NCBI GenBank assembly: GCA_027334565.1
Contig: DAHWUP010000006.1
Coordinates: 1-46,620, forward strand
Length of the DNA: 46,620 nt
DNA from: Candidatus Levyibacteriota bacterium
GTDB lineage: Bacteria; Patescibacteriota; Microgenomatia; Levybacterales; UBA12049
Reading direction: 5' to 3'
Shown here: piece after piece, positions 17,865 through 38,859 of the stretch
How positions within the stretch are numbered: the stretch's first letter is position 1
How the letters are laid out: every line of letters begins with the position of its first letter
Translations under genes and position numbers: made by a program
Notes under the pieces: generated by a model
Told to the model about the DNA's origin: nothing
Database searches by the model: none
The model's input: the letters and a program-made list of their open reading frames with translations, nothing else

Positions 17865-18741
17865 TCAATAGGTAATATCGGTTTCGTGACGATACTGGAG
17901 GCTTTTGGCGATATGATTAGGTTTTATTTCTTGCGGCCCTTCCAAGTCGGCGATGATTCGGGATAATTTGATAACTCTAGTAAGATCTGGCGGAAAGCCG
18001 CATTCTTAACACCGCTGATTTTAAAAGAGTAAGACAGTCATCTGATAATTGGCAAAAGGTTTTAATATCCCTGTTGGTCATTTCGGTATTTGACTTAATC
18101 TCGGATTGCTTATATCTTTTGATTTGTATGCTTCGCGCCAGCTCCGTTCTTTTTCCAATTACTTGCAGACTTTCATTCCGATTGTTATCTCCTGCGGTAA
18201 GTTTTTCTACTTTAACAGCAGTAACGTCAAGATGTATATCGATCCTATCAAGCATCGGCCCGGAAACTCTTTTTTGATATCTAAGAATTTGAGCGGCGTT
18301 GCAACGGCATTCGTGTGTCGTATCGCCGAGATATCCGCAGGGACAGGGATTTCGAGCCGTAAATAAAATAAATTTTGAGGGAAAAATCAATTTTCCGTTG
18401 GCACGGGAAATTACCACAAACCCGTCTTTCATCGGTTGTCTTAAGGCTTCTGGGACATGTCTTGGGAATTCCGGGAATTCAACCAAAAATAAAACTCCGC
18501 GATGCGCTAATTAGACCTCTCCGGGCTTAGGGTTTGCGCCTTTGCCGATAAGACCGATATGTGAAGCATCATGATGCGGACTTCTAAACAACCTTTTGGT
18601 AAATACGGGTTTATTATCCAAAAGACCCGAGATGCTGTATATCCTGTTTACTTCGAAGGCTTCGTCCAAAGTTAGTTTTGGTACGATGGTTGGGAAGGTT
18701 CTAACCAGAAGTGTCTCATCGTCCACAGGTGATCCTTACAT
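17865..18741 (-). pseudogene. comM: ComM/YifB (Mg-chelatase-like ATPase) pseudogene, N-terminal half missing
   Basis: Reads M*GSPVDDETLLVRT (eroded GPPGxGKT)...FRSPHH...KPGEV*LAHRGVLFLVEFPEF (in-frame TAA at 18513-18511; Walker B D>V)...NPCPCG...SGPMLDRID...LSARSY, then frameshift near 17978 into RVIKLSRIIADLEG...HIAKSLQYR, stop at 17865. Confidence 0.9.
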
Positions 18742-18743
18742 TT

Positions 18744-20108
18744 TTAGCTTTTGCCAACTAGTTTCGGAGCAATCCCGACATACCGTTGTGGAGAGAGTTC
18801 AAGTAAGTTTTGTTTGTCGGTTTCGGGTATTTTTAGAGAATTAACGAGCTCCTTCCAATCTTTCTTATCGAATTTTTGGCCTTTGGAAATTAAAGCGACA
18901 ACTTCATAAGCATTATGAAAATTTTTACTCCTTAAAATTGTTTGTAATGCTTCCGATAAGATTGCCCAGTTCTCATATAACTTTTCATCAGTTTTTTGTG
19001 TATCTATGTCGATTTTTCTTATTCCCGATAAAACATTTTTATAAGACAGGAGACAATATGCCAAAGCCGTCCCCAGGTTTCTAATAATCGTACTGTTTGA
19101 AAGGTCTCGCTGTAGTCTCGAGACATATAGTTTGTCAATCATCGCCTGTGTCAATCCGTTAGCAATACACAAATTTCCTTCGGAATTTTCAAAATCTATC
19201 GGATTTAATTTTTGCGGCATTGTAGAGGAACCAACTTCCTTATCAGAGACTTTATATTTTAGCCAACCGTCGCTGATATATCTCCAAACATCTTGGTTAA
19301 AATCCAACAAAATCCCGTTTATCCTTTGCAAGATTTGAAACAAAGCAATTACGTCCTCATACGGATTTATTTGGGTGGTGATCAGGTTAGGAGTTAAGCC
19401 GAATGACGACACGAATTCTTTTGAAAACTTTATCCAATCCACTCCGGGATAAACGAAATGAACAGCATTAAAATTACCCACCGCACCGTTTAACTTTCCG
19501 GTTAATTTTTGTTTTGTTAAGTTTTTAAGCTCTTTCTTCAGCCTTGACGCAAATACCGCGAATTCCTTGCCAAAGGTTGTAGGTACCGCCGGCTGACCGT
19601 GAGTTCGCCCGAGGATCACGGTCCGTTTGTGTTTTTTAGAGAATTCATCAAGTTCATCTATGATAGCTTTAAGTATAGGAACCATAACTTCAGAAACAGA
19701 TTTTTTCAGCATCAACCTGTAAGCGATGTTATTAACGTCATCCGAGGTAAGACCGAAATGGTAAAATTCTAAAATGTCTTTTAGCGAGGTTTTTGATAGT
19801 TTTTTTCTGGTAAAAATTTCAAGAGATCTAACGTCGTTAACGATGTCTTCTTCGATTTTTTTCACTTTGATTGCGTTGGAAAGGCTAAAATCGGATGCAA
19901 GATCGAGCAGATACCCCTGTTCCACATTCGTTAAGGGCCTGGTAATCTTAGATTTGGAAAGAGCAGCAAGATAACTGATTTCGATCTTAAGCCTCAACTT
20001 AATTAAGGCAAATTCCGAGACGAATTCCGAAAGTTCCAGGACCTTCTGCTTGTACCTTCCGTCAATGGTGGTAATAGAGGTTAATTCTTCCCCGATATTG
20101 TGTTTCAT
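18744..20108 (-). CDS. purB: Adenylosuccinate lyase
   Basis: IDGRY, HFGLTSDDVNN, GRTHGQPAVPTTFGKE, GSSTMPQKLNPIDFENSEGN, SRLQRDLS. Confidence 0.96.
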   Translation of the reverse strand: MKHNIGEELTSITTIDGRYKQKVLELSEFVSEFALIKLRLKIEISYLAALSKSKITRPLTNVEQGYLLDLASDFSLSNAIKVKKIEEDIVNDVRSLEIFTRKKLSKTSLKDILEFYHFGLTSDDVNNIAYRLMLKKSVSEVMVPILKAIIDELDEFSKKHKRTVILGRTHGQPAVPTTFGKEFAVFASRLKKELKNLTKQKLTGKLNGAVGNFNAVHFVYPGVDWIKFSKEFVSSFGLTPNLITTQINPYEDVIALFQILQRINGILLDFNQDVWRYISDGWLKYKVSDKEVGSSTMPQKLNPIDFENSEGNLCIANGLTQAMIDKLYVSRLQRDLSNSTIIRNLGTALAYCLLSYKNVLSGIRKIDIDTQKTDEKLYENWAILSEALQTILRSKNFHNAYEVVALISKGQKFDKKDWKELVNSLKIPETDKQNLLELSPQRYVGIAPKLVGKS

Positions 20109-24441: not shown

Positions 24442-24813
24442 TCAATTGAAGGGTACTCCGCGTAGGTCGTTATCTCGGGCGTAAGCATCCGCAGCTTCCG
24501 CTTGAGCTTTATCCTTTTTAAATTCAAAGATAGCTGTTAGGCGTTTGTCTCTATCTCTAACATATTTTTCCCAATCCTCTGCAGATAAGGAAAATGGGGC
24601 AGGTTCAGGGGGCGGAGGCGGAGGCGGATGCAGCAAATCGACAATGGGATAAAGTGGTCGGGCCGGAATAGTCGATGATTGTTCTGTTGGAGCGTGTCCG
24701 GACACAACGCTTAAATGCTTTTTTCTAGCATCCGCAGTTTCGGAATGATTGCCAATAAGTTCTTTAGCAGCAACCGCCATAAAATAAAATCGATACATAT
24801 ATTTTGATACCAT
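24442..24813 (-). CDS. Hypothetical Pro-rich protein (start may be ATG at 24780)
   Basis: 123-aa ORF with a poly-Pro tract; no recognisable family. Confidence 0.55.
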   Translation of the reverse strand: MVSKYMYRFYFMAVAAKELIGNHSETADARKKHLSVVSGHAPTEQSSTIPARPLYPIVDLLHPPPPPPPEPAPFSLSAEDWEKYVRDRDKRLTAIFEFKKDKAQAEAADAYARDNDLRGVPFN

Positions 24814-24904: not shown

Positions 24905-24976
24905 TCCGCGATAGCTCAATGGTAGAGCGGCTCCCTGTTAAGGAGAAGGTTCTAGGTCCGAGTCCTAGTCGCGGAG
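24905..24976 (+). tRNA. tRNA-Asn(GTT), CCA not encoded
   Basis: Acceptor TCCGCGA/TCGCGGA, D-arm GCTC/GAGC, anticodon loop CTGTTAA, T-arm CTAGG-TCCGAGT-CCTAG, discriminator G. Confidence 0.93.
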
Positions 24977-25006
24977 CACTTCACTAAAGTCTGCTATCAT
25001 AAGCAT

Positions 25007-25471
25007 ATGAAGGCTCTCCCTTATGCTTTTTTAATTGGTGCTATTTTCTCCTTTTTTATATTTTTAACTAACGTTGTCTTTCCAAATAACGGACCCGATA
25101 ACGGAACAGCTGTCGGATTCACTTATTTAGTTTTATTTTCTCTTTTCGGTCTTGGTGGTTACATTAACAGCCGACAATCAAAGGATAAAATAAAAAGCGG
25201 AGCAGTGGGAGGAGCAATTACTGCCTTTATAGTTGTTGGACTGATTATGCTTACTTTTGCTTTTGTGGATAACGTTTTTTTAAGTACTGTTAGTAAGCAA
25301 GCTGATAAAATAGCAGGCTTTACTAATGCAAAGAACCAGTTTCATTCAATGCGAGATTATATAAATCACGGACTTTTGATGGGTTCAATTATCGTACTGC
25401 CGGTAGTAACAATTATTGGCGGTTTATTAGGAAGTATTGGGGCTTTTAGTAGAAGCGAGTTAAAGAAATAA
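25007..25471 (+). CDS. Four-TM hypothetical membrane protein (cassette 1 cargo)
   Basis: 154-aa hydrophobic ORF; TGc-TATCAT 6 nt upstream of ATG. Confidence 0.75.
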   Translation: MKALPYAFLIGAIFSFFIFLTNVVFPNNGPDNGTAVGFTYLVLFSLFGLGGYINSRQSKDKIKSGAVGGAITAFIVVGLIMLTFAFVDNVFLSTVSKQADKIAGFTNAKNQFHSMRDYINHGLLMGSIIVLPVVTIIGGLLGSIGAFSRSELKK

Positions 25472-25587
25472 GTTCTGACGTCGTCCATTAGGCGGAGCAA
25501 CTTATATTTATAACCTCAGAGATTGATGGACAGCATCATATTATACCTTGCTACAAATTTATCTAATAAGCTTCTATAATTAAAGAA

Positions 25588-25983
25588 GTGAAAACTCCAT
25601 CTGAAGAAACAGATGACATAATCAAGAATATACCTGATTGGCGAGGTAAAAAGTTGGCACAGCTTCGCTTTATCATTACAAAGGCTGATTCAGAGCTGGT
25701 GGAAGAAGTGAAGTGGAAAAAACCTTCCAAACCCGAAGGAGTTCCTGTTTGGTCACATGAGGGCACACTTTGTATAGGTGAGGCACTCAAAAACGCTGTT
25801 CGTTTGACATTCCCCAAGGGAGCGAAGGTTAAAGATCCAAAGAAGCTTTTCAATACACGGCTGGATAGCAGCAGTGTTCGCGCAATTGACTTCTTTGAAG
25901 ATGGAATAATTGATGAAGCTGCATTGACAAAACTTATCCAAGAAGCTGTGAAGGTAAATATGCAAAAAACAAAATTAACATGA
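25588..25983 (+). CDS. DUF1801 (YdhG-like) protein (cassette 2 cargo)
   Basis: DWRGKKLAQLR...EEVKW...GVPVWSHEG...VRLTFPKGA...DPKKLFN...RAIDF. Confidence 0.85.
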   Translation: MKTPSEETDDIIKNIPDWRGKKLAQLRFIITKADSELVEEVKWKKPSKPEGVPVWSHEGTLCIGEALKNAVRLTFPKGAKVKDPKKLFNTRLDSSSVRAIDFFEDGIIDEAALTKLIQEAVKVNMQKTKLT

Positions 25984-26351
25984 AAAGACCAATCTTCCTA
26001 ACAATATGGCTTATGTTACTGTTTCTCTTTGCTGTGGCTCTCACAGCTGATTCTCTTACCTATCTTCCTATGATACGTCTTACGAAAAATTACATTAGTC
26101 TTTTGGGAATTGCTGCTGGATTTGTACAAATATGGGCGGTAGTTCAATTACTTAGATGGAAAAAGGTAGGAGTAACACTTTTAGTATCCTCAGCAATTGT
26201 CATACTGTTGGTAACAGCTATTAATGAATTTTACCTAGTGTTAAAGATAAACCAAATACTTATCAGCATGGCAATGGTTTTGTTGGTTAACTTCATTATG
26301 TTTGGGATTTTATATTTGGCAATACGCCCAGTCTGGAAAAACTTCAAGTAA
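25980..26351 (+). CDS. Four-TM hypothetical membrane protein (cassette 2 cargo)
   Basis: 123 aa; ATGA overlap with the upstream gene; hydrophobic helices. Confidence 0.75.
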   Translation: MKRPIFLTIWLMLLFLFAVALTADSLTYLPMIRLTKNYISLLGIAAGFVQIWAVVQLLRWKKVGVTLLVSSAIVILLVTAINEFYLVLKINQILISMAMVLLVNFIMFGILYLAIRPVWKNFK

Positions 26352-26364
26352 ATAGTAAAAATTC

Positions 26365-26508
26365 CTAAATTGCTAGCGTTTTGGACCGTTGTAGCCTTTG
26401 AATTTCCTCCCACCTATGTTTCATCTCCCCAACATATCCAACATTAAACATTGGTTGTACTGCCGGTGCGTAATCTACTGGTATGAAGAAATGTGGCTCG
26501 GGGAGCAA
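26365..26508 (-). pseudogene. Antisense 47-aa peptide starting in the att-like repeat; putative recombinase C-terminal tail
   Basis: LLPEPHFFIPVDYAPAVQPMFNVGYVGEMKHRWEEIQRLQRSKTLAI*; homologous to 27320-27454. Confidence 0.55.
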
Positions 26509-26568
26509 ATTATTCTTAATATAATCTCTATTTGTTGATTTATTCCCAAATTGTGAGATGATTTAACT

Positions 26569-27330
26569 GTGGAAGAACAAATTAAGCAAAAATATCCAAC
26601 AGTTCATAAATATTTATTCACCGTAACTACTTTTTCAAAACTTCTAGCCATGTTTTTATTTATTTTTTTTCCATTTGTAGGATTTTATTTGGGAATGATA
26701 TATGAACAAGGAATCACAATAAATACATCAATTGTCTCGCTACCACAAAAAAATATAAAAATATTACTAAGTCCAACTCCAATAGCATCTATCTCGGGAA
26801 CAATTTCATCAAACTCAACCCTAAATTGGAAAACCTATACGAGCTCAAAATATAATTTATCATTCAAATATCCTTCAAATTGGAAATCTTACACAGAAGG
26901 TAAAATAACTTTGGTGCCTTTAAATAAAGTGCAGTATTTAGACTATGTCTCAGCTCCTATACAAATTGAATTTCAACAAAATCCCAATAAATTAACTTTA
27001 GATAAGTGGCAACAAGAAGAAAATGCAAAACTTATGGGAATCCCATACAATTATTACAATTCTAAATCAACACAAAAAACCACAATTAACGGATACACCG
27101 CTTATATTAATAAGAAGTCGGAAGATTGCGAACCAGTATTTTGTTACGAAGAAATAATTATGGATAATGAAAACATATTTATTTTTAAAAATTTGGATTT
27201 ATCCGGAACATTTCCAATTGGGACTGCTAGCACAGGCGCAACTTGGAAACAGATTTATTCAGAGGGAGATATTCAAACAAATCAACAAATTTTTGAAACT
27301 TTACTTTCAACCCTAAAATTCACGCGATAA
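26569..27330 (+). CDS. Membrane-anchored PsbP-like/secreted protein (cassette 3 cargo)
   Basis: TVTTFSKLLAMFLFIFFPFVGFYLG anchor; WKTYTSSKYNLSFKYPSNW and FETLLSTLKF motifs of PsbP-related CPR proteins. Confidence 0.75.
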   Translation: MEEQIKQKYPTVHKYLFTVTTFSKLLAMFLFIFFPFVGFYLGMIYEQGITINTSIVSLPQKNIKILLSPTPIASISGTISSNSTLNWKTYTSSKYNLSFKYPSNWKSYTEGKITLVPLNKVQYLDYVSAPIQIEFQQNPNKLTLDKWQQEENAKLMGIPYNYYNSKSTQKTTINGYTAYINKKSEDCEPVFCYEEIIMDNENIFIFKNLDLSGTFPIGTASTGATWKQIYSEGDIQTNQQIFETLLSTLKFTR

Positions 27331-27454
27331 GAGCATGATTTAACTGTAACTTCCTTATCTCTTCCCACCTTTCTCGTAATTCGCCAATATAGCTTAGATT
27401 TTGAAGTGAATTTATTACTTTTGCAGTTATAATAATCTAAGGACTGGGGAGCAA
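27320..27454 (-). pseudogene. Second antisense tail peptide, with one internal stop
   Basis: LLPSP*IIITAKVINSLQNLSYIGELRERWEEIRKLQLNHALIA*. Confidence 0.55.
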
Positions 27455-27485: not shown

Positions 27486-27956
27486 GTTGTAAATCAACTT
27501 TTCAAAAGCATTCTGCATAACCTGGGCGTTGTGATAGTTGGGTTTATTTTTGCGTATATTGGTCTGGTGACAGATACATTACTAAAGATCCACGATTTTA
27601 GATTTGTTTATACATCCTTGATAGGCTTAATACTTTTAGTCATTGGGTTTTTAGTAAGGGTTTGGGCAACATACTATTTTTATAATAATTAAATGAAAGT
27701 TATTAAGCTTACGCCTCAAAATACCCTTATTACCGAAGGGCCTTTCCGTTATTCCAGAAATCCACTTTATCTCGGCGGGAATTTATTCATCTTTCTTGGA
27801 GCAGTTCTTGTTGTCGGTTCTCCGAGCTGTATCGTATTCACGTTTATTGAATTGGTATTAACAAATGTTATGATTAGCAGGGAAGAAAAACAACTAGAAC
27901 GAACCTTCGGGAGAGGATGGCTAGATTATAAAAAGCGAGTCCGCCGTTGGATATAA
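27486..27956 (+). pseudogene. Isoprenylcysteine carboxyl methyltransferase (ICMT/PEMT) family pseudogene
   Basis: In-frame upstream TM sequence VVNQLFKSILHNLGVVIVGF...LVRVWATYYFYNN, then TAA (27690-27692), then MKVI...LITEGPFRYSRNPLYLG...REEKQLERTFG...YKKRVRRWI. No start codon at the expected 5' end. Confidence 0.8.
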
Positions 27957-28084: not shown

Positions 28085-28480
28085 ATGAACGCGAGTCAAG
28101 AAATAGATTCCATAATTAAAAAATCCAACGATTGGAGAGGCAAAAAATTGGCTCAACTGCGTATTGTAATCAAACAAGCAGACCAAGGGATAGTTGAAGA
28201 AGTGAAGTGGAAAAAACCGTCAAAACCTGAAGGGGTACCAGTTTGGTCGAGCAATGGCATACTCTGTGTTGCAGACATACTTAAAAACGCCGTGAGGTTG
28301 ACCTTTCCTAAGGGCGCACTTATGAAAGATCCAAAAAAACTTTTCAATACGAGGTTAGACAGTAAGACCGTTCGCGCCATCGATTTTTATGTAGATAATG
28401 TGCTAAATGAAGCTGCGCTTACAGAGCTCATTCACGAAGCAGTAATGATAAACGCTTTAAAATCAAGAAGCGATGAATGA
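28085..28480 (+). CDS. DUF1801 protein, close homologue of 25588..25983
   Basis: Shares VEEVKWKKPSKPEGVPVWS, LKNAVRLTFPKGA and KDPKKLFNTRLDS exactly. Confidence 0.85.
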   Translation: MNASQEIDSIIKKSNDWRGKKLAQLRIVIKQADQGIVEEVKWKKPSKPEGVPVWSSNGILCVADILKNAVRLTFPKGALMKDPKKLFNTRLDSKTVRAIDFYVDNVLNEAALTELIHEAVMINALKSRSDE

Positions 28481-29197: not shown

Positions 29198-29581
29198 ATG
29201 AAAAAATATTCCTCGGTTGAAGAGTATATTAGAAGTTATCCGCCTGATGTCAGAAAGAAACTACAGGCACTCAGAATAGCGATAAAAGAGGTGGTTCCGC
29301 CGCAAGCCATAGAAAAAATAAGTTACCAGATTCCGACGTTTTATTTAAACCAAAACCTCGTACATTTTGCGGCGTTTAAAGATCATATCAGTTTTTTTCC
29401 GACCAGCTCAGGCGTTGCCAAATTTAAGGAACAGCTATCAAGATACAAGCTATCCAGGGGGACGATACAAATTTCCTTGAATGAGGAATTGCCGATATCG
29501 TTAATTAAAAAAATTGTGAGATTCAGGGTTGAAGAAGTGTTGAAAAGGAAAGAGCAAAAAGGTTTGCTAAAAGGGTCATAG
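29198..29581 (+). CDS. DUF1801 / YdhG-type iron-chaperone-like protein
   Basis: SVEEYI...EKISYQIPTF...LVHFAAFKDHISFFP...SRGTIQ...LPISLIKKIV. Confidence 0.88.
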   Translation: MKKYSSVEEYIRSYPPDVRKKLQALRIAIKEVVPPQAIEKISYQIPTFYLNQNLVHFAAFKDHISFFPTSSGVAKFKEQLSRYKLSRGTIQISLNEELPISLIKKIVRFRVEEVLKRKEQKGLLKGS

Positions 29582-36570: not shown

Positions 36571-38859
36571 ATGAAAAACACTGTCAGTTTTTATATCGAT
36601 AAAATTATCACATATTTACTCCTTGCGGTTGCAGTAATCACCCCATTACTATTTTTTAACCAAACCACAGAATTTTACGAAATGCCTAAAATGTTTTTCT
36701 TGGTGGTGGCAACCGTTGTCCTTGTAGGCCTTTGGATTTTTTCCTGGATTGTCAAGGGCAAGGTTATTATCAATAGAACGCCTTTGGATATTCCGTTGTT
36801 GGTTCTATTGGTTGTAGTTTTGCTATCCACCTATTTTAGTGCCAACATCTACCCGGCCATTTACGGGAGTTTGCCCAGGGTTCACGGGTCCGCTGTTTCA
36901 TGGGTAACTTATATTCTATTATATTTTGTGGCAGCCTCAAACCTGAAAGGCATAGCGGAAATTAAAAATTTCCTTTACGCCTTAATGGGGGGTGCGGTTG
37001 TCGTTGCCTTGGTGACGCTTGCCGCCTTCTTTAAATTATATTTGCCGTTTGATTTTGCCCAAGCCGTCAATTTCACTCCCACGGGATCGTCGTTTTCGAC
37101 CGCCGCGTTACTTCTAATGCTTTTACCCTTGCCGCTTCTGTCGCTGGCAAAACAAAATAAATATTTACCGATCCCCGTATCACTTTTTTTGACCATCCTT
37201 TTTTCGGCCGTAATTGCCTTAATTAGTTCCTTATGGGTTGATGTGCTCTTGGTCCTGGTTTATGCACTGACCGCTTTCGTTGCAAAACCGCACCAGGTAA
37301 AGAAGACTCTGGGCGTCTTCCTGGTGCCGGTTGCAACCACGGCCTTGGTGTTCATCCTAGCGTACGCGCCTTTCCCCGGTAACGTCGTGCAATCGCTTGA
37401 GGCAAATTTCCCCAAAGAGATACAATTGCCTTTAGAAGTTTCCTGGAAAATCAGCGCCTCCGCCTTTAGGGACGCACCCTTCATCGGCACCGGTCCATCA
37501 AGCTATCTATTCAACTTCACAGCCTATAAGCCGCTCGAGTTCAACCAGCTGAATGTATGGAGTTTCTCTTTTGATACCGCATTCAATGAATTCCTGCAGG
37601 TCTTGGGTACGCTTGGTTTCTTCGGATTCATGGGATTGTTGGTCCTATCACTGGTGGTTATCGCGCATGGCTGGAGATTACTCTCAGCCAATACCGCAAG
37701 CCAGGCGCAGGACGTATCAAGGATTCTAACTACCGGATTGGCAATCAGCGGATTGACGACGATCGCATTATTATTGGTACACGCGACAACACTCGTTTCC
37801 TTTGTAATAATGCTGTTTGTCCTGGCGTCATTTATGATGTCCCAGGACCACGTCAGGGAAAAAGTGCTGGAATTTTCAATCGGCATAAAAGCTTTGACCT
37901 CGGAGAATAAACAATTCGATTTATTCCCGATTGTTGTTTTTATAGTCTACTTAATACTGGCAGTACCGGTTTTATTTAAAACCGCCAGCGTGGCGATGGC
38001 GGATTACTATCATCGACAGGCCCTATCTCAGGCCAACAAGAACGGCACCTTGACCTATCAATACCTGCAAAAAGCAGAACAACTCGCCCCGGAAATGGAT
38101 CTGTACAGGGTAGATATGGCGCAGACGAACTTTGCTCTGGCAAACGCTTTGGCCTTGCAAAAAGGACCGACCAAAGACAATCCGCAGGGAACCTTAACAA
38201 ACAGCGACAAACAGACCATCCAAACCCTTTTGTCACAGGCTATCAATGAAGGCAGGGTAAGCGTTGTCTTAAGCCCGAGATCGGCAAGGAACTGGGAAGT
38301 GCTGGCATCAATTTATCAGAATATCACCGGAGTGGCCCAAAACGCACTCGCATTCGCCCTTGACGCATACAATGCGGCTATCCAAAGAGACCCGGTCAAT
38401 CCCGCCCTGAGGCTTAGCGTTGGAGGAATCTATTATGCTGTCAAAAATTATAACCTGGCGACCAGATTCTTTACCGACGCGATCAATCTAAAACCCGATT
38501 ACGCCAACGCCTATTATAATTTGGCTCTAGCAGACAGGGATAATAATGACCTTCAGGATGCAGCTTTGGTGTCCAACCAACTCGTGATACTGTTGCAGAA
38601 AAACAGTCCAAATAGCGCCAATCTTAAAGCAGCACAAACATTATATAACGATATAAAAAACCAGATAGCATCCAATAATCAAGCGGCACAAGAACAACAA
38701 GCGTCGAGCCAGAAAGCCCCTCTTCAGAACTCGAATATTTCGGGGGTGAATGTTTCCAACCTGCAAAATGCGCCTAAGGTAACGGTGCCGACCCCGGTTA
38801 AAAGTAATCCTAACGCTAACATTCCTCAATTGAGTCCGACCCCGACCCCTACGCCATAA
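36571..38859 (+). CDS. O-antigen ligase/Wzy_C-like polytopic membrane protein with C-terminal TPRs
   Basis: FYEMPK, RTPLDIP, W...PFIGTGPSSY, AFNEFLQVLGTLG, ~12 TMs, TPRs (AINLKPDYANAYYNLA), PTPTP tail. Confidence 0.85.
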   Translation: MKNTVSFYIDKIITYLLLAVAVITPLLFFNQTTEFYEMPKMFFLVVATVVLVGLWIFSWIVKGKVIINRTPLDIPLLVLLVVVLLSTYFSANIYPAIYGSLPRVHGSAVSWVTYILLYFVAASNLKGIAEIKNFLYALMGGAVVVALVTLAAFFKLYLPFDFAQAVNFTPTGSSFSTAALLLMLLPLPLLSLAKQNKYLPIPVSLFLTILFSAVIALISSLWVDVLLVLVYALTAFVAKPHQVKKTLGVFLVPVATTALVFILAYAPFPGNVVQSLEANFPKEIQLPLEVSWKISASAFRDAPFIGTGPSSYLFNFTAYKPLEFNQLNVWSFSFDTAFNEFLQVLGTLGFFGFMGLLVLSLVVIAHGWRLLSANTASQAQDVSRILTTGLAISGLTTIALLLVHATTLVSFVIMLFVLASFMMSQDHVREKVLEFSIGIKALTSENKQFDLFPIVVFIVYLILAVPVLFKTASVAMADYYHRQALSQANKNGTLTYQYLQKAEQLAPEMDLYRVDMAQTNFALANALALQKGPTKDNPQGTLTNSDKQTIQTLLSQAINEGRVSVVLSPRSARNWEVLASIYQNITGVAQNALAFALDAYNAAIQRDPVNPALRLSVGGIYYAVKNYNLATRFFTDAINLKPDYANAYYNLALADRDNNDLQDAALVSNQLVILLQKNSPNSANLKAAQTLYNDIKNQIASNNQAAQEQQASSQKAPLQNSNISGVNVSNLQNAPKVTVPTPVKSNPNANIPQLSPTPTPTP

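Follow-up and report, generated by a model that had tools for sequence, protein, structure and literature searches.

Minus-strand peptides behind a tRNA-Asn gene as probable remnants of large serine recombinase genes that contain their own attP

Three minus-strand peptides that follow a tRNA-Asn gene in the 46.6-kb stretch of DNA analysed here (the window) are very probably remnants, left at the distal (attR-side) junction, of large serine recombinase (LSR) genes that carry attP within the 3' part of their coding sequence. In relatives, the recombinase body and its tail were found at opposite ends of integrated elements, on the same strand and with the core at both junctions, and the window holds tail ends alone; that a recombinase gene was split here too is what these relatives suggest. 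Neither a recombinase body nor a recognisable remnant of one was present in the window or beside any of the three cores, and no Resolvase catalytic domain was detected in the window. No working split gene is therefore present, and the three tails are orphan scars that are decaying or already dead.

The tRNA-Asn target site and the three tail copies

The tRNA-Asn (GTT) gene was located by ARAGORN at 24905..24977 on the plus strand (Rfam tRNA, 65 bits) and its 3' end, GCGGAGCA (24970-24977, plus strand), forms the shared core. This 3' end is the target site of the LSR family. The initial annotation had all three copies opening on the minus strand with TTGCTCC(G/C)C, and the exact sites were recovered: TTGCTCCSC occurs exactly three times in the window, always on the minus strand (25492-25500, 26500-26508 and 27446-27454) and at most 2.5 kb downstream of the tRNA-Asn gene, a count that is weak by itself (0.68 sites expected, three or more in 6 of 100 shuffles). 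Copy 1 has just 8 nt of the core in common with the tRNA-Asn of the window and copies 2 and 3 have 6+1 nt, a short overlap that is a point against an origin from split LSR genes. The block TAAATATAA(C/G)TTGCTCC is common to copy 1, to copy b of contig C37 and to the related genome G001, of the same genus, and was absent in other relatives. Read antisense across its 3' end (24965..24979, minus strand), the tRNA-Asn gene gives V-L-R-D-stop in the register of the tails, as had been noted, with ...SEVLRD* as the extended translation, and the integrated recombinases of two relatives (G002 and G013) terminate in the same frame.

Copy 1 (25465..25500, minus strand) comprises the core TTGCTCCGC and a short 'RTYF-type' recombinase tail, LLRLMDDVRTYF, overlapping the 3' end of a cargo ORF. 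Copy 2 (26365..26508, minus strand) comprises the core TTGCTCCCC and an open type-A tail of 47 codons, LLPEPHFFIPVDYAPAVQPMFNVGYVGEMKHRWEEIQRLQRSKTLAI, which is recognised by the tail profile and has a counterpart in the protein P0123, and copy 3 (27320..27454, minus strand) is a decayed scar with the same core and a type-A tail interrupted by an in-frame TAG at codon 6, LLPSP*IIITAKVINSLQNLSYIGELRERWEEIRKLQ. Translation reproduced the three peptides as first read (LLRLMDDVRTYF..., LLPEP...YVGEMKHRWEEIQRLQ and LLPSP*...YIGELRERWEEIRKLQ). The homology claimed for copies 2 and 3 was borne out by tblastn in the 0.9-Mb genome (E = 3.6e-6 and 9.9e-8) and by the tail profile in its six-frame translation (E = 2.7e-25 and 1.9e-14, respectively), and the 9-nt difference in their offset corresponds to one indel. 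Their divergence was of a coding type, in line with the past coding selection proposed for them, with differences at codon positions 1/2/3 of 41/8/64 in a 14-codon block of five copies from the window genome and of 336/68/472 among twelve copies from the window genome and related genomes. The ortholog of copy 3 in G001 retains 78% DNA identity. Two more type-A tails lie on contig C37 behind a tRNA-Arg(TCT) gene without such a core, which is a further point against an origin from split LSR genes.

The assignment of copy 1 to a recombinase tail depends on a short motif and is weaker than those of copies 2 and 3: the tail match had an E-value of 0.21 over all loci and of 0.0013 within a 12-kb region, and a second tail profile (tC2, built mostly from FRTFDW tails) missed copy 1 at E ≤ 5 in the genome. 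A pattern derived from intact recombinase tails matched copy 1 alone in the six-frame genome and had no match in 10 shuffles, a result that is partly circular because the pattern was composed after copy 1 had been seen, with L added at its first position. The copy-1 ortholog in G001 retains ELRGIDDVRTYLN despite synonymous changes. For this copy only, the sequence could instead be a decayed duplicate of the tRNA-Asn 3' half, the kind of tRNA fragment that a classical island displaces, with an accidental peptide. Copy 1 does align locally to the tRNA-Asn from the anticodon loop to the 3' end, with a score equalled in 20 of 2000 shuffles, and G001 carries a 13-nt exact copy of the tRNA end about 100 nt past the copy-1 ortholog. 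This explanation is nonetheless fairly unlikely, given that the intact-tail pattern, with the circularity just described, is unique in the six-frame genome to this spot and that DDVRTY is conserved in G001 through the synonymous pairs GTC/GTT and ACT/ACC. As the tail side of these att sites resembles the tRNA arm anyway, the tail and tRNA-fragment views of copy 1 can both hold.

Each copy closes a small cargo cassette. Cassette 1 (24978..25500) lacks a recombinase and carries an ORF (25007-25471, plus strand) for a 154-aa membrane protein with just weak matches to DUF4199 and DUF5518; cassette 2 (25501..26508) encodes a DUF1801 protein (25588-25983, plus strand) and a 123-aa membrane protein (25980-26351, plus strand); and cassette 3 (26509..27454) encodes a PsbP-like protein of 253 aa that has a membrane helix at its N-terminus (26569-27330, plus strand). 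For the annotation of the window, three minus-strand ORFs would thus become scars and not genes, and 24978-27454 a three-cassette island. The gene for the 123-aa membrane protein and the tail recur as a unit across genera in G013, where the cargo gene is 78% identical to that of the window and the adjacent tail only about 40%, with loss of the conserved W. In G001, other cargo lies between the same tRNA gene and the copy-1 tail. The stretch is present, in assembled contigs, in two sequencing runs of one study, one of which may be its source; no joint removing a cassette was found in these contigs, a material in which rare forms cannot be revealed.

Repeats that close promoter-less cargo cassettes in an array recall attC sites, and could in principle act as structured DNA or RNA, for instance as integron attC-like hairpins or as a small RNA, rather than derive from coding sequence. 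Such a nature is extremely improbable here: the repeats folded no better than their shuffles on either strand (z from +0.5 to +1.5), Rfam matched the tRNA alone, and the repeats show codon-periodic divergence and in-frame continuation into recombinases.

Intact recombinases, their common break point and the placement of tails

With copy 2 as query, a 552-aa open frame was retrieved from a related genome (L005/L013), coding for a 531-aa LSR with Resolvase, Recombinase and Zn-ribbon domains (L005:55-1647; PF00239, E = 3.3e-11; PF07508, E = 1.6e-8; PF13408, E = 8.5e-10) and the C-terminus ...KLWLPKPSIIIALNQAQFEIIIKGFQNLSYIGELRQRWNEIRKIQQGVAISY. The core TGGCTCCCC is read in frame in this protein (K-L-W-L-P) and is followed by the tail "...FQNLSYIGELRQRW.EI.K.Q". 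The source gene of the tail has the hallmarks of an LSR, namely a Resolvase catalytic domain with the nucleophilic serine, a Recombinase domain, a zinc ribbon and an inserted coiled coil, and R8 and S10 were invariant in all 45 aligned family members. In the AlphaFold model of the intact LSR, long helices span residues 349-381 and 387-430, the break falls within a low-confidence linker (479-492) past the last body helix, and the tail is predicted as two helices (486-505 and 507-529) with no confident docking in the model (tail pLDDT 33-61). Frames of 590 aa that also matched copy 2 (G030, G032, G033, G034 and G039; E from 1e-3 to 1e-2) were taken as chance, the one locus read (L009) encoding a PilB/GspE-type ATPase, and an apparent tblastn similarity to the recombinase upstream of the copy 3 core was discarded as alignment run-on through stops.

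The peptides had been expected to match the extreme C-termini of recombinases, and they did so for LSRs that include L005/L013, P0030, P0094, L036, P0123 and P0175, with the core in frame where the tails of the window begin. In P0123 a near-identical copy 2 tail is fused to the end of the recombinase body, and copies 2 and 3 are homologous to the residues past the ...PFDxIL(7-9 residues)W-L break, starting from the same core codons. The 'DxxRTYF'-like ending named in the initial annotation exists in P0017 (WLRGAYSVRTYF) and P0065 (WLRILNEIRTFF) and, as ...RTYF, in L071 and L081. The LSR family with these tails occurs in Patescibacteria, Chlamydiota and Verrucomicrobiota, and intact recombinases were also found within chromosomal contigs (L016 and L036).

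The break is common to most of the family: it falls directly after the W in 104 of the 120 best homologues of the 531-aa LSR, 49 of which have a stop at most six residues past this W and 55 of which run on with a DS[ND]-type antisense of the tRNA T-arm (44 classed as such, and 11 of the 14 initially classed as 'other'). Real tails are kept by nine homologues (three each with YIGELRQRW, NREIxF and xRTYF), the remainder being three with other endings and four without the motif. Examples of tRNA-antisense endings after the break are WLRD and WLPRVDSN, and the homologues P0003, P0040, P0059, P0070, P0072 and P0112 end in LRD. [quoted passage not shown] No tRNA or tmRNA was called in 27 loci, seven of which are intact genes with tails, and the match ended early in four and ran off the contig edge in two. 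The suggestion that integration replaces the C-terminus by a stop supplied by the antisense tRNA agrees with the LSRs of G002 (535 aa) and G013 (544 aa), both of which end ...LRD* in the same tRNA-Asn.

The proposed position of the tails, at the distal end of the element and on the recombinase strand, was also recovered: with the tail profile at E ≤ 0.01, and about 619 kb searched upstream and 577 kb downstream, 30 of 31 out-of-gene matches lay upstream on the same strand, the remaining one lying downstream on the other strand, with none upstream on the other strand or downstream on the same strand. Four matches were in-frame continuations of the recombinase. At 13 loci, with elements spanning 5.3-10.6 kb, the junction was compared with the start of the tail; a block of 10-17 nt was shared in seven and blocks of 26 and 70 nt in two, and four pairs shared just 6-8 nt, off the junction. 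Type-A tails downstream of and antisense to tRNA-Asn were present in G001 (at 1.5 kb), G007 (4.3 kb) and G013 (18.5 and 27.3 kb).

Tails might also have arisen without recombination at the core, if complete recombinase genes lost their 5' parts by deletion where they stood and only the 3' stump was left, at internal junctions of tandem elements or as plain pseudogenes. Body sequence does lie directly upstream of the orphan tail in some public loci (with 70 nt in common at L063 and 26 nt at L089), the tail at L032 is preceded by ...FKNRPEEWGR, and the intact recombinases within chromosomal contigs point the same way. We consider this origin quite improbable, however, in view of the five copies of the window genome, in all of which the similarity, whether to one another or to the recombinase, ends no more than a few bases from the same core; independent deletions would not stop at the same base. 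Nor was body homology found across the cores of the window at E ≤ 1e-3. Because tandem arrays need an in-gene att site too, in-place decay complements a split at the core and does not exclude it.

A profile of nine type-A tails, searched against 1.84 billion representative proteins, gave 201 matches at E ≤ 1e-3. Among the best 150 of these the tail was always C-terminal, with the end of a recombinase body directly upstream in nine, the match beginning at the core in 53, and short ORFs with unrelated upstream residues in 88. That 141 of the 150 are short free-standing ORFs also fits small proteins of 45-100 aa that form a family of their own, are encoded where cassettes end and are in some cases fused to recombinases, for example as trans-acting partners of the enzyme; the 53 that start at the core do so with a start codon, TTG is usable as a start, and copy 2 and the copy on contig C26 are open frames. 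Such a family is nevertheless highly improbable, with copy 3 carrying its stop at codon 6, two further tail copies of the window genome frameshifted, and the tail in G013 far more diverged than the adjoining cargo gene. The upstream sequence showed no conserved signal, and gene callers turn attR scars into exactly such short ORFs.

Proposed origin of the array and its implications

The location of attP inside the recombinase gene, as first proposed for this DNA, is supported by the homology of the tails to recombinase C-termini, by the break point that the family shares, by the tRNA overlap and by the distal position of the tails. On a free element, the gene would consist of the body, the core and then a tail of 12-50 residues, the core codons W-L-P/R corresponding to TGGCTCC, which is GGAGCCA of the tRNA end read antisense. 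Recombination with a tRNA or tmRNA gene at its 3' tip would bring the body next to the tRNA, and the integrated body would read into the antisense tRNA, ending at the tRNA-Asn of the window in ...LRD-stop, while the tail would end up at the opposite end of the element without changing strand relative to the recombinase. In the window just the far-end scars would remain behind the tRNA-Asn, each closing its cassette, the bodies having been lost. The array may have grown through repeated integrations and loss of bodies, or recombinase-less cassettes may have been mobilised in trans. Successive integration requires recombination at attL or attR and characterised serine integrases are not known to perform either without a directionality factor, which is a point against such growth.

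Serine integrases are prized as one-way tools for genome engineering, their direction being set by a separate protein. The LSR family described here would represent a large natural group of enzymes that rewrite their own gene through the reaction they catalyse, and would show serine integrases targeting tRNA and tmRNA 3' ends widely. The full-length enzyme would be confined to the free element and the tail-less enzyme to the chromosome; the tail may give the free-state enzyme a property absent from the integrated one, for example in stability or in how integration is regulated relative to excision, as in the possible directionality switch of the initial annotation, and its presence or absence would provide a self-contained means of telling the free from the integrated state. 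Many 'hypothetical' ORFs of 45-100 residues in candidate-phyla genomes would be explained as integration scars, and tail scars would mark the borders of variable islands in reduced genomes.

We regard as unlikely a more elaborate role, in which the tRNA-linked array of these tiny genomes is an integron-like platform where a tRNA-proximal serine recombinase and tail-plus-core sites, each able to pair with the junction of the recombinase, deposit, capture and swap cargo, the tail serves as a state sensor, and the tail peptide of the distal junction, starting at a TTG or ATG in the core, possibly acts back on the tail-less enzyme as a directionality factor. Hints in its direction are the differing cargo in G001, the cross-genus unit of cargo and tail, the C37 tails at a different tRNA and the 53 of 150 tail ORFs starting at the core.

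Comparison with known recombination systems

Integrons rely on the tyrosine integrase IntI and on folded attC hairpins. The resemblance of the window to them is one of layout only, with small promoter-less cassettes each closed by a recombination-site repeat beside a fixed primary site; IntI and attC-type hairpins are absent from the window, which does not qualify as an integron. Tycheposons of Prochlorococcus insert at tRNA genes, where repeated insertions push older elements outward, and their islands contain partial tRNAs, degraded integrases and stranded cargo (10.1101/2020.12.28.424599). They differ in their cyanobacterial hosts and in using mostly tyrosine recombinases, a large serine recombinase being present in 27 of 937 elements, and an att site inside the recombinase gene is not stated in the part of that text available to us (10.1101/2020.12.28.424599).

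The initial annotation had likened the arrangement to SSV1-type split integrases, a likeness that holds for the geometry but not for tyrosine chemistry, the enzyme being a serine recombinase by its domains. SSV1-type integrases are archaeal tyrosine recombinases; their split takes off a large part of the gene and the two parts end up at opposite ends of the provirus, whereas here the loss would be limited to a tail of about 12-50 residues that lies past the last folded domain. The integration target of myxophage Mx8 is tRNA-Asp. Mx8 is similar in having a tRNA gene as target and attP within the integrase coding sequence, and differs in that its Int is a tyrosine recombinase, compared here with a whole family of LSRs at no fewer than nine tRNA species and tmRNA and with a window that has orphan tails alone. 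An attP inside the gene is known for the tyrosine integrases of Mx8 (IntP/IntX) and SSV (PMC6070905, PMC4383910), integration of Mx8 into a tRNA gene yielding a new 3' end and a different integrase C-terminus (PMC6070905, PMC4383910), and in SSV1-type fuselloviruses the integrase gene crosses attP and is split by integration (PMC4383910).

The LSRs described here share with the integrases of phiC31, Bxb1, A118/LI, TP901-1 and SPbeta the Resolvase, Recombinase and Zn-ribbon domains, a long coiled coil and a short core between sites. In the portions of the literature covered by our search, no description was found of a serine integrase whose gene extends across its attP; such genes may be present in large att-site surveys. 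To our knowledge, the characterised large serine integrases have attP outside the gene and take their direction from a separate factor, whereas in the present family attP very probably lies within the gene itself.

Tail peptides of the three cassettes

A tRNA-Asn(GTT), placed at 24905-24977 on the plus strand by tRNA calling and RNA family search and ending in ...CCTAGTCGCGGAGCA, is followed by three cassettes with plus-strand cargo, encoding a 154-aa membrane protein (cassette 1), a DUF1801 protein and a 123-aa membrane protein (cassette 2) and a 253-aa PsbP-like protein (cassette 3). Each closes with a minus-strand tail peptide, named copy 1 (25465-25500), copy 2 (26365-26508) and copy 3 (27320-27454), which, read from the core (the short word common to the tRNA end and the in-gene att site), give LLRLMDDVRTYF..., LLPEPHFFIPVDYAPAVQPMFNVGYVGEMKHRWEEIQRLQRSKTLAI and LLPSP*IIITAKVINSLQNLSYIGELRERWEEIRKLQ, respectively. 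The initial annotation's observation that all three begin TTG-CTC-C(C/G)C was reproduced, TTGCTCCSC occurring three times in the 46.6-kb window and on the minus strand only (25492-25500, 26500-26508 and 27446-27454), a count weak by itself (0.68 expected; three attained in 6 of 100 shuffles). In the register of the tails, the tRNA-Asn antisense reads ...SEVLRD*, the VLRD* previously noticed.

Copies 2 and 3, whose tail type we call type A, matched each other with E-values of 3.6e-6 and 9.9e-8 (0.9-Mb genome) and a single 9-nt indel, bearing out their proposed homology and 9-nt offset difference. The genome has three further copies, on contigs C26 and C37, giving five type-A copies, and in all five the similarity is lost no more than a few bases before the core on its upstream side. 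Differences at codon positions 1/2/3 numbered 41/8/64 in a 14-codon block of these five and 336/68/472 among twelve copies drawn from the window's genome and its relatives, in line with the past coding selection suggested earlier. Folding of the window's copies was not above that of shuffles and the RNA family search gave no match to them. On sequence grounds, the tails are real, repeated and coding in origin.

The window's copies are to be regarded as scars. Copy 3 carries a TAG at codon 6 and both copies on C37 are frameshifted; in the related genome G013 the 123-aa membrane gene is kept at 78% identity, and the tail directly behind it (~40% identity to copy 2) no longer has the conserved W. 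The same-genus genome G001 has a copy 1 ortholog (ELRGIDDVRTYLN) with synonymous changes and a copy 3 ortholog at 78% DNA identity, with cargo between tRNA and copy 1 that differs from the window's. Support for copy 1 as a putative recombinase tail is thinner than for copies 2 and 3: the first tail profile gave E 0.21 across all loci and 0.0013 within a 12-kb region, and copy 1 alone matches the motif pattern in the six-frame genome (0 in 10 shuffles), a pattern drawn up with copy 1 known. It also aligns with the 3' half of tRNA-Asn, an equal score being reached in just 20 of 2000 shuffles. Both readings, recombinase tail and tRNA half, may hold, because the tail side of the sites resembles a tRNA arm.

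Other features of the region were recorded. The window has three DUF1801 paralogs inside a 4-kb stretch, at 25588-25983 (in cassette 2), 28085-28480 and 29198-29581 (both past the last core), the first two with 70% DNA identity over 300 nt. Directly after the last core, a PEMT/ICMT-type methyltransferase (27531-27956) is apparently split into two neighbouring ORFs (53 and 87 aa) and is possibly a gene broken at an old island border. ARAGORN alone called an 80-nt tRNA-Arg(TCT) at 38556-38635 (minus strand), with unusual geometry (anticodon at position 37). In G001, locus L096 (C38, ~1630-1790 in tRNA sense) has an extra ~110 nt from the copy 1 ortholog to the shared flank, with a terminator-like hairpin, ending in an exact 13-nt copy of the window's tRNA-Asn 3' end (TAGTCGCGGAGCA), unlike G001's own tRNA-Asn, whose acceptor stem differs (TCACGGA). 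Short contigs from sequencing run X3, in which the organism is seemingly absent, are 90-95% alike over window 26463-26504 and 27413-27454; at contig level only, they cover just 42 nt of each tail beside the core and end at or near it, as if relatives had the tail side in common and differed beyond.

The intact recombinase gene and its break point

With copy 2 as query, matches were obtained in 13 of 41 related genomes, the window's own included. One falls in a 552-aa open frame containing a 531-aa large serine recombinase (LSR) with Resolvase, Recombinase and Zn-ribbon domains. Its final 50 residues are KLWLPKPSIIIALNQAQFEIIIKGFQNLSYIGELRQRWNEIRKIQQGVAISY, and it carries the core in frame at W-L-P (TGGCTCCCC), so the window tails start exactly at that gene's core; TGG-CTC-C corresponds in antisense to GGAG-CCA, which is the tRNA-Asn end with CCA added. 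The search that had been proposed thus led to the extreme C-terminus of an LSR. Five weak matches lay in 590-aa frames, and the one inspected was a PilB/GspE-type ATPase.

Relatives of this LSR numbered 1830 (E<=1e-5) among 7999 scored candidates, and endings were sorted for the best 120 of the 1830. After the W, 49 stop within six residues (WLRD, WLPR, WLPG...), 55 continue ...DSN/DSD..., the tRNA T-arm antisense (44 classed so and 11 of 14 'other'), and nine have a real tail (three each of YIGELRQRW, NREIxF and xRTYF); three are other and four lack the break motif. The three xRTYF tails (WLRGAYSVRTYF, WLRILNEIRTFF and WLPVLNTIRTEC) match the ending proposed in the initial annotation and are the counterpart of copy 1.

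A profile of nine type-A tails, searched against 1.84 billion representative proteins, gave 201 matches at E<=1e-3 (102 at E<=1e-10). Among the best 150 of these (median length 62 aa), 53 have the core as their starting point, nine are directly preceded by the recombinase body end, as in P0123, where ...KPFDTIRLYASRQAW runs on into LPEPHFLIPIAYAPAVQPMFNVGYFGEMKQRWEEIKKLQ, a sequence almost the same as copy 2, and the other 88 are short ORFs whose upstream residues are unrelated. The short tail ORFs are gene-caller products of distal scars, and full-length members are probably masked by tail-less cluster representatives.

Layout around recombinases

We examined 80 public loci (<=10 kb flank on either side) with titles from Patescibacteria lineages, Chlamydiota, Verrucomicrobiota and others. 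The recombinase frame ends inside an antisense tRNA or tmRNA in 47 (tmRNA 12, Gln 8, Tyr 8, Asn 7, Ser 4, Leu 2, Trp 2, Glu 2, Arg 1, His 1), as had been predicted; 27 are without a called tRNA/tmRNA (seven being intact genes with tails, most others having DSN-like ends), the match stops early in four and two run off the contig end. A tail-profile scan (E<=0.01) of 619 kb of upstream and 577 kb of downstream sequence placed 30 matches upstream on the recombinase strand, none upstream on the other strand, none downstream on the same strand and one downstream on the other, besides four in-frame continuations, in keeping with the anticipated tail-then-core order at the distal end. The sole off-pattern match (L081:13921-13986, minus strand, Saccharibacteria) is a second, inverted tail copy ~2.4 kb downstream of an intact recombinase. 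Junction and tail start, compared in 13 loci spanning 5.3-10.6 kb, share blocks of 10-17 nt in seven and of 26 and 70 nt in two; in four, just 6-8 nt are in common, away from the junction. Together, tRNA overlap, same-strand distal tails and shared blocks form the pattern that would be expected with attP inside the gene.

Type-A tails lie downstream of and antisense to tRNA-Asn in G001 (1.5 kb), G007 (4.3 kb) and G013 (18.5 and 27.3 kb), and the recombinases of G002 (535 aa) and G013 (544 aa) directly adjoin tRNA-Asn, both ending ...LRD* in its antisense, the kind of ending foreseen. No recombinase was found in the window, and its genome has only two serine recombinases, both on the minus strand and reading into an antisense tRNA: one of 516 aa (C31:99085-100635) spans almost the whole tRNA-Lys 99079-99153, and one cut by the contig end (C37:24780-25934) enters tRNA-Gln 24738-24809.

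C37 begins with tRNA-Lys sequence identical to that of C31, which suggests an assembly branch there. Its two frameshifted type-A tails (17943-19000, plus strand; L101) lie between tRNA-His and tRNA-Arg(TCT), with cargo on the opposite strand as in the window; since the tRNA-Arg(TCT) end is without a TGCTCC core, both scars may have arrived there within other DNA. An orphan FRTxDW-type tail (ILRARWDNFRTLDWYEII, profile E 0.02) lies near a contig end at C2:19667-19798 (minus strand). Locus L013 (G012:C25, 1-19446) starts with TTGCTCCGCC and an open tail-like frame (LLRQWNTASTGKWLREEWFRGNYQLLNF*) and ends with a second, apparently frameshifted recombinase (17895-19386) reading ...QPGLRD* into tRNA-Asn; with the intact 531-aa recombinase mid-contig between them, the arrangement suggests a tandem or composite element.

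Proposed tail exchange and known systems

The in-frame core, common break point, tRNA overlap and distal same-strand tails are established at the level of sequence. Integration would swap the recombinase tail for tRNA-antisense residues, and the chromosome-borne gene would then yield a tail-less enzyme with all folded domains; in the predicted structure of the 531-aa LSR, a low-confidence linker (479-492) contains the break, and the tail is made up of two helices. Because the conserved motif of the tail sits at 75-135 nt from the core, past any plausible binding site, and its changes are synonymous, we infer that it has its role in the protein encoded by the free element, with direction, specificity or stability as candidate functions. 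Characterised serine integrases are not known to act on attL or attR in the absence of a directionality factor. The recombinase-less array may have arisen by successive insertions whose recombinase bodies were later lost, or from cassettes mobilised in trans.

Tycheposons, of which 27 of 937 elements have an LSR, generate islands by inserting repeatedly at tRNAs (10.1101/2020.12.28.424599). The 2014 Islander paper states that no serine integrases were known to target tRNA genes (PMC4383910), and our literature search, based largely on abstracts, found no description of a serine integrase gene spanning its own attP. An attP within the integrase gene is known for Mx8 and SSV (PMC4383910, PMC6070905); those integrases are tyrosine enzymes, whereas the window's source enzyme is a large serine recombinase, and the attP-in-gene arrangement would be common to both.
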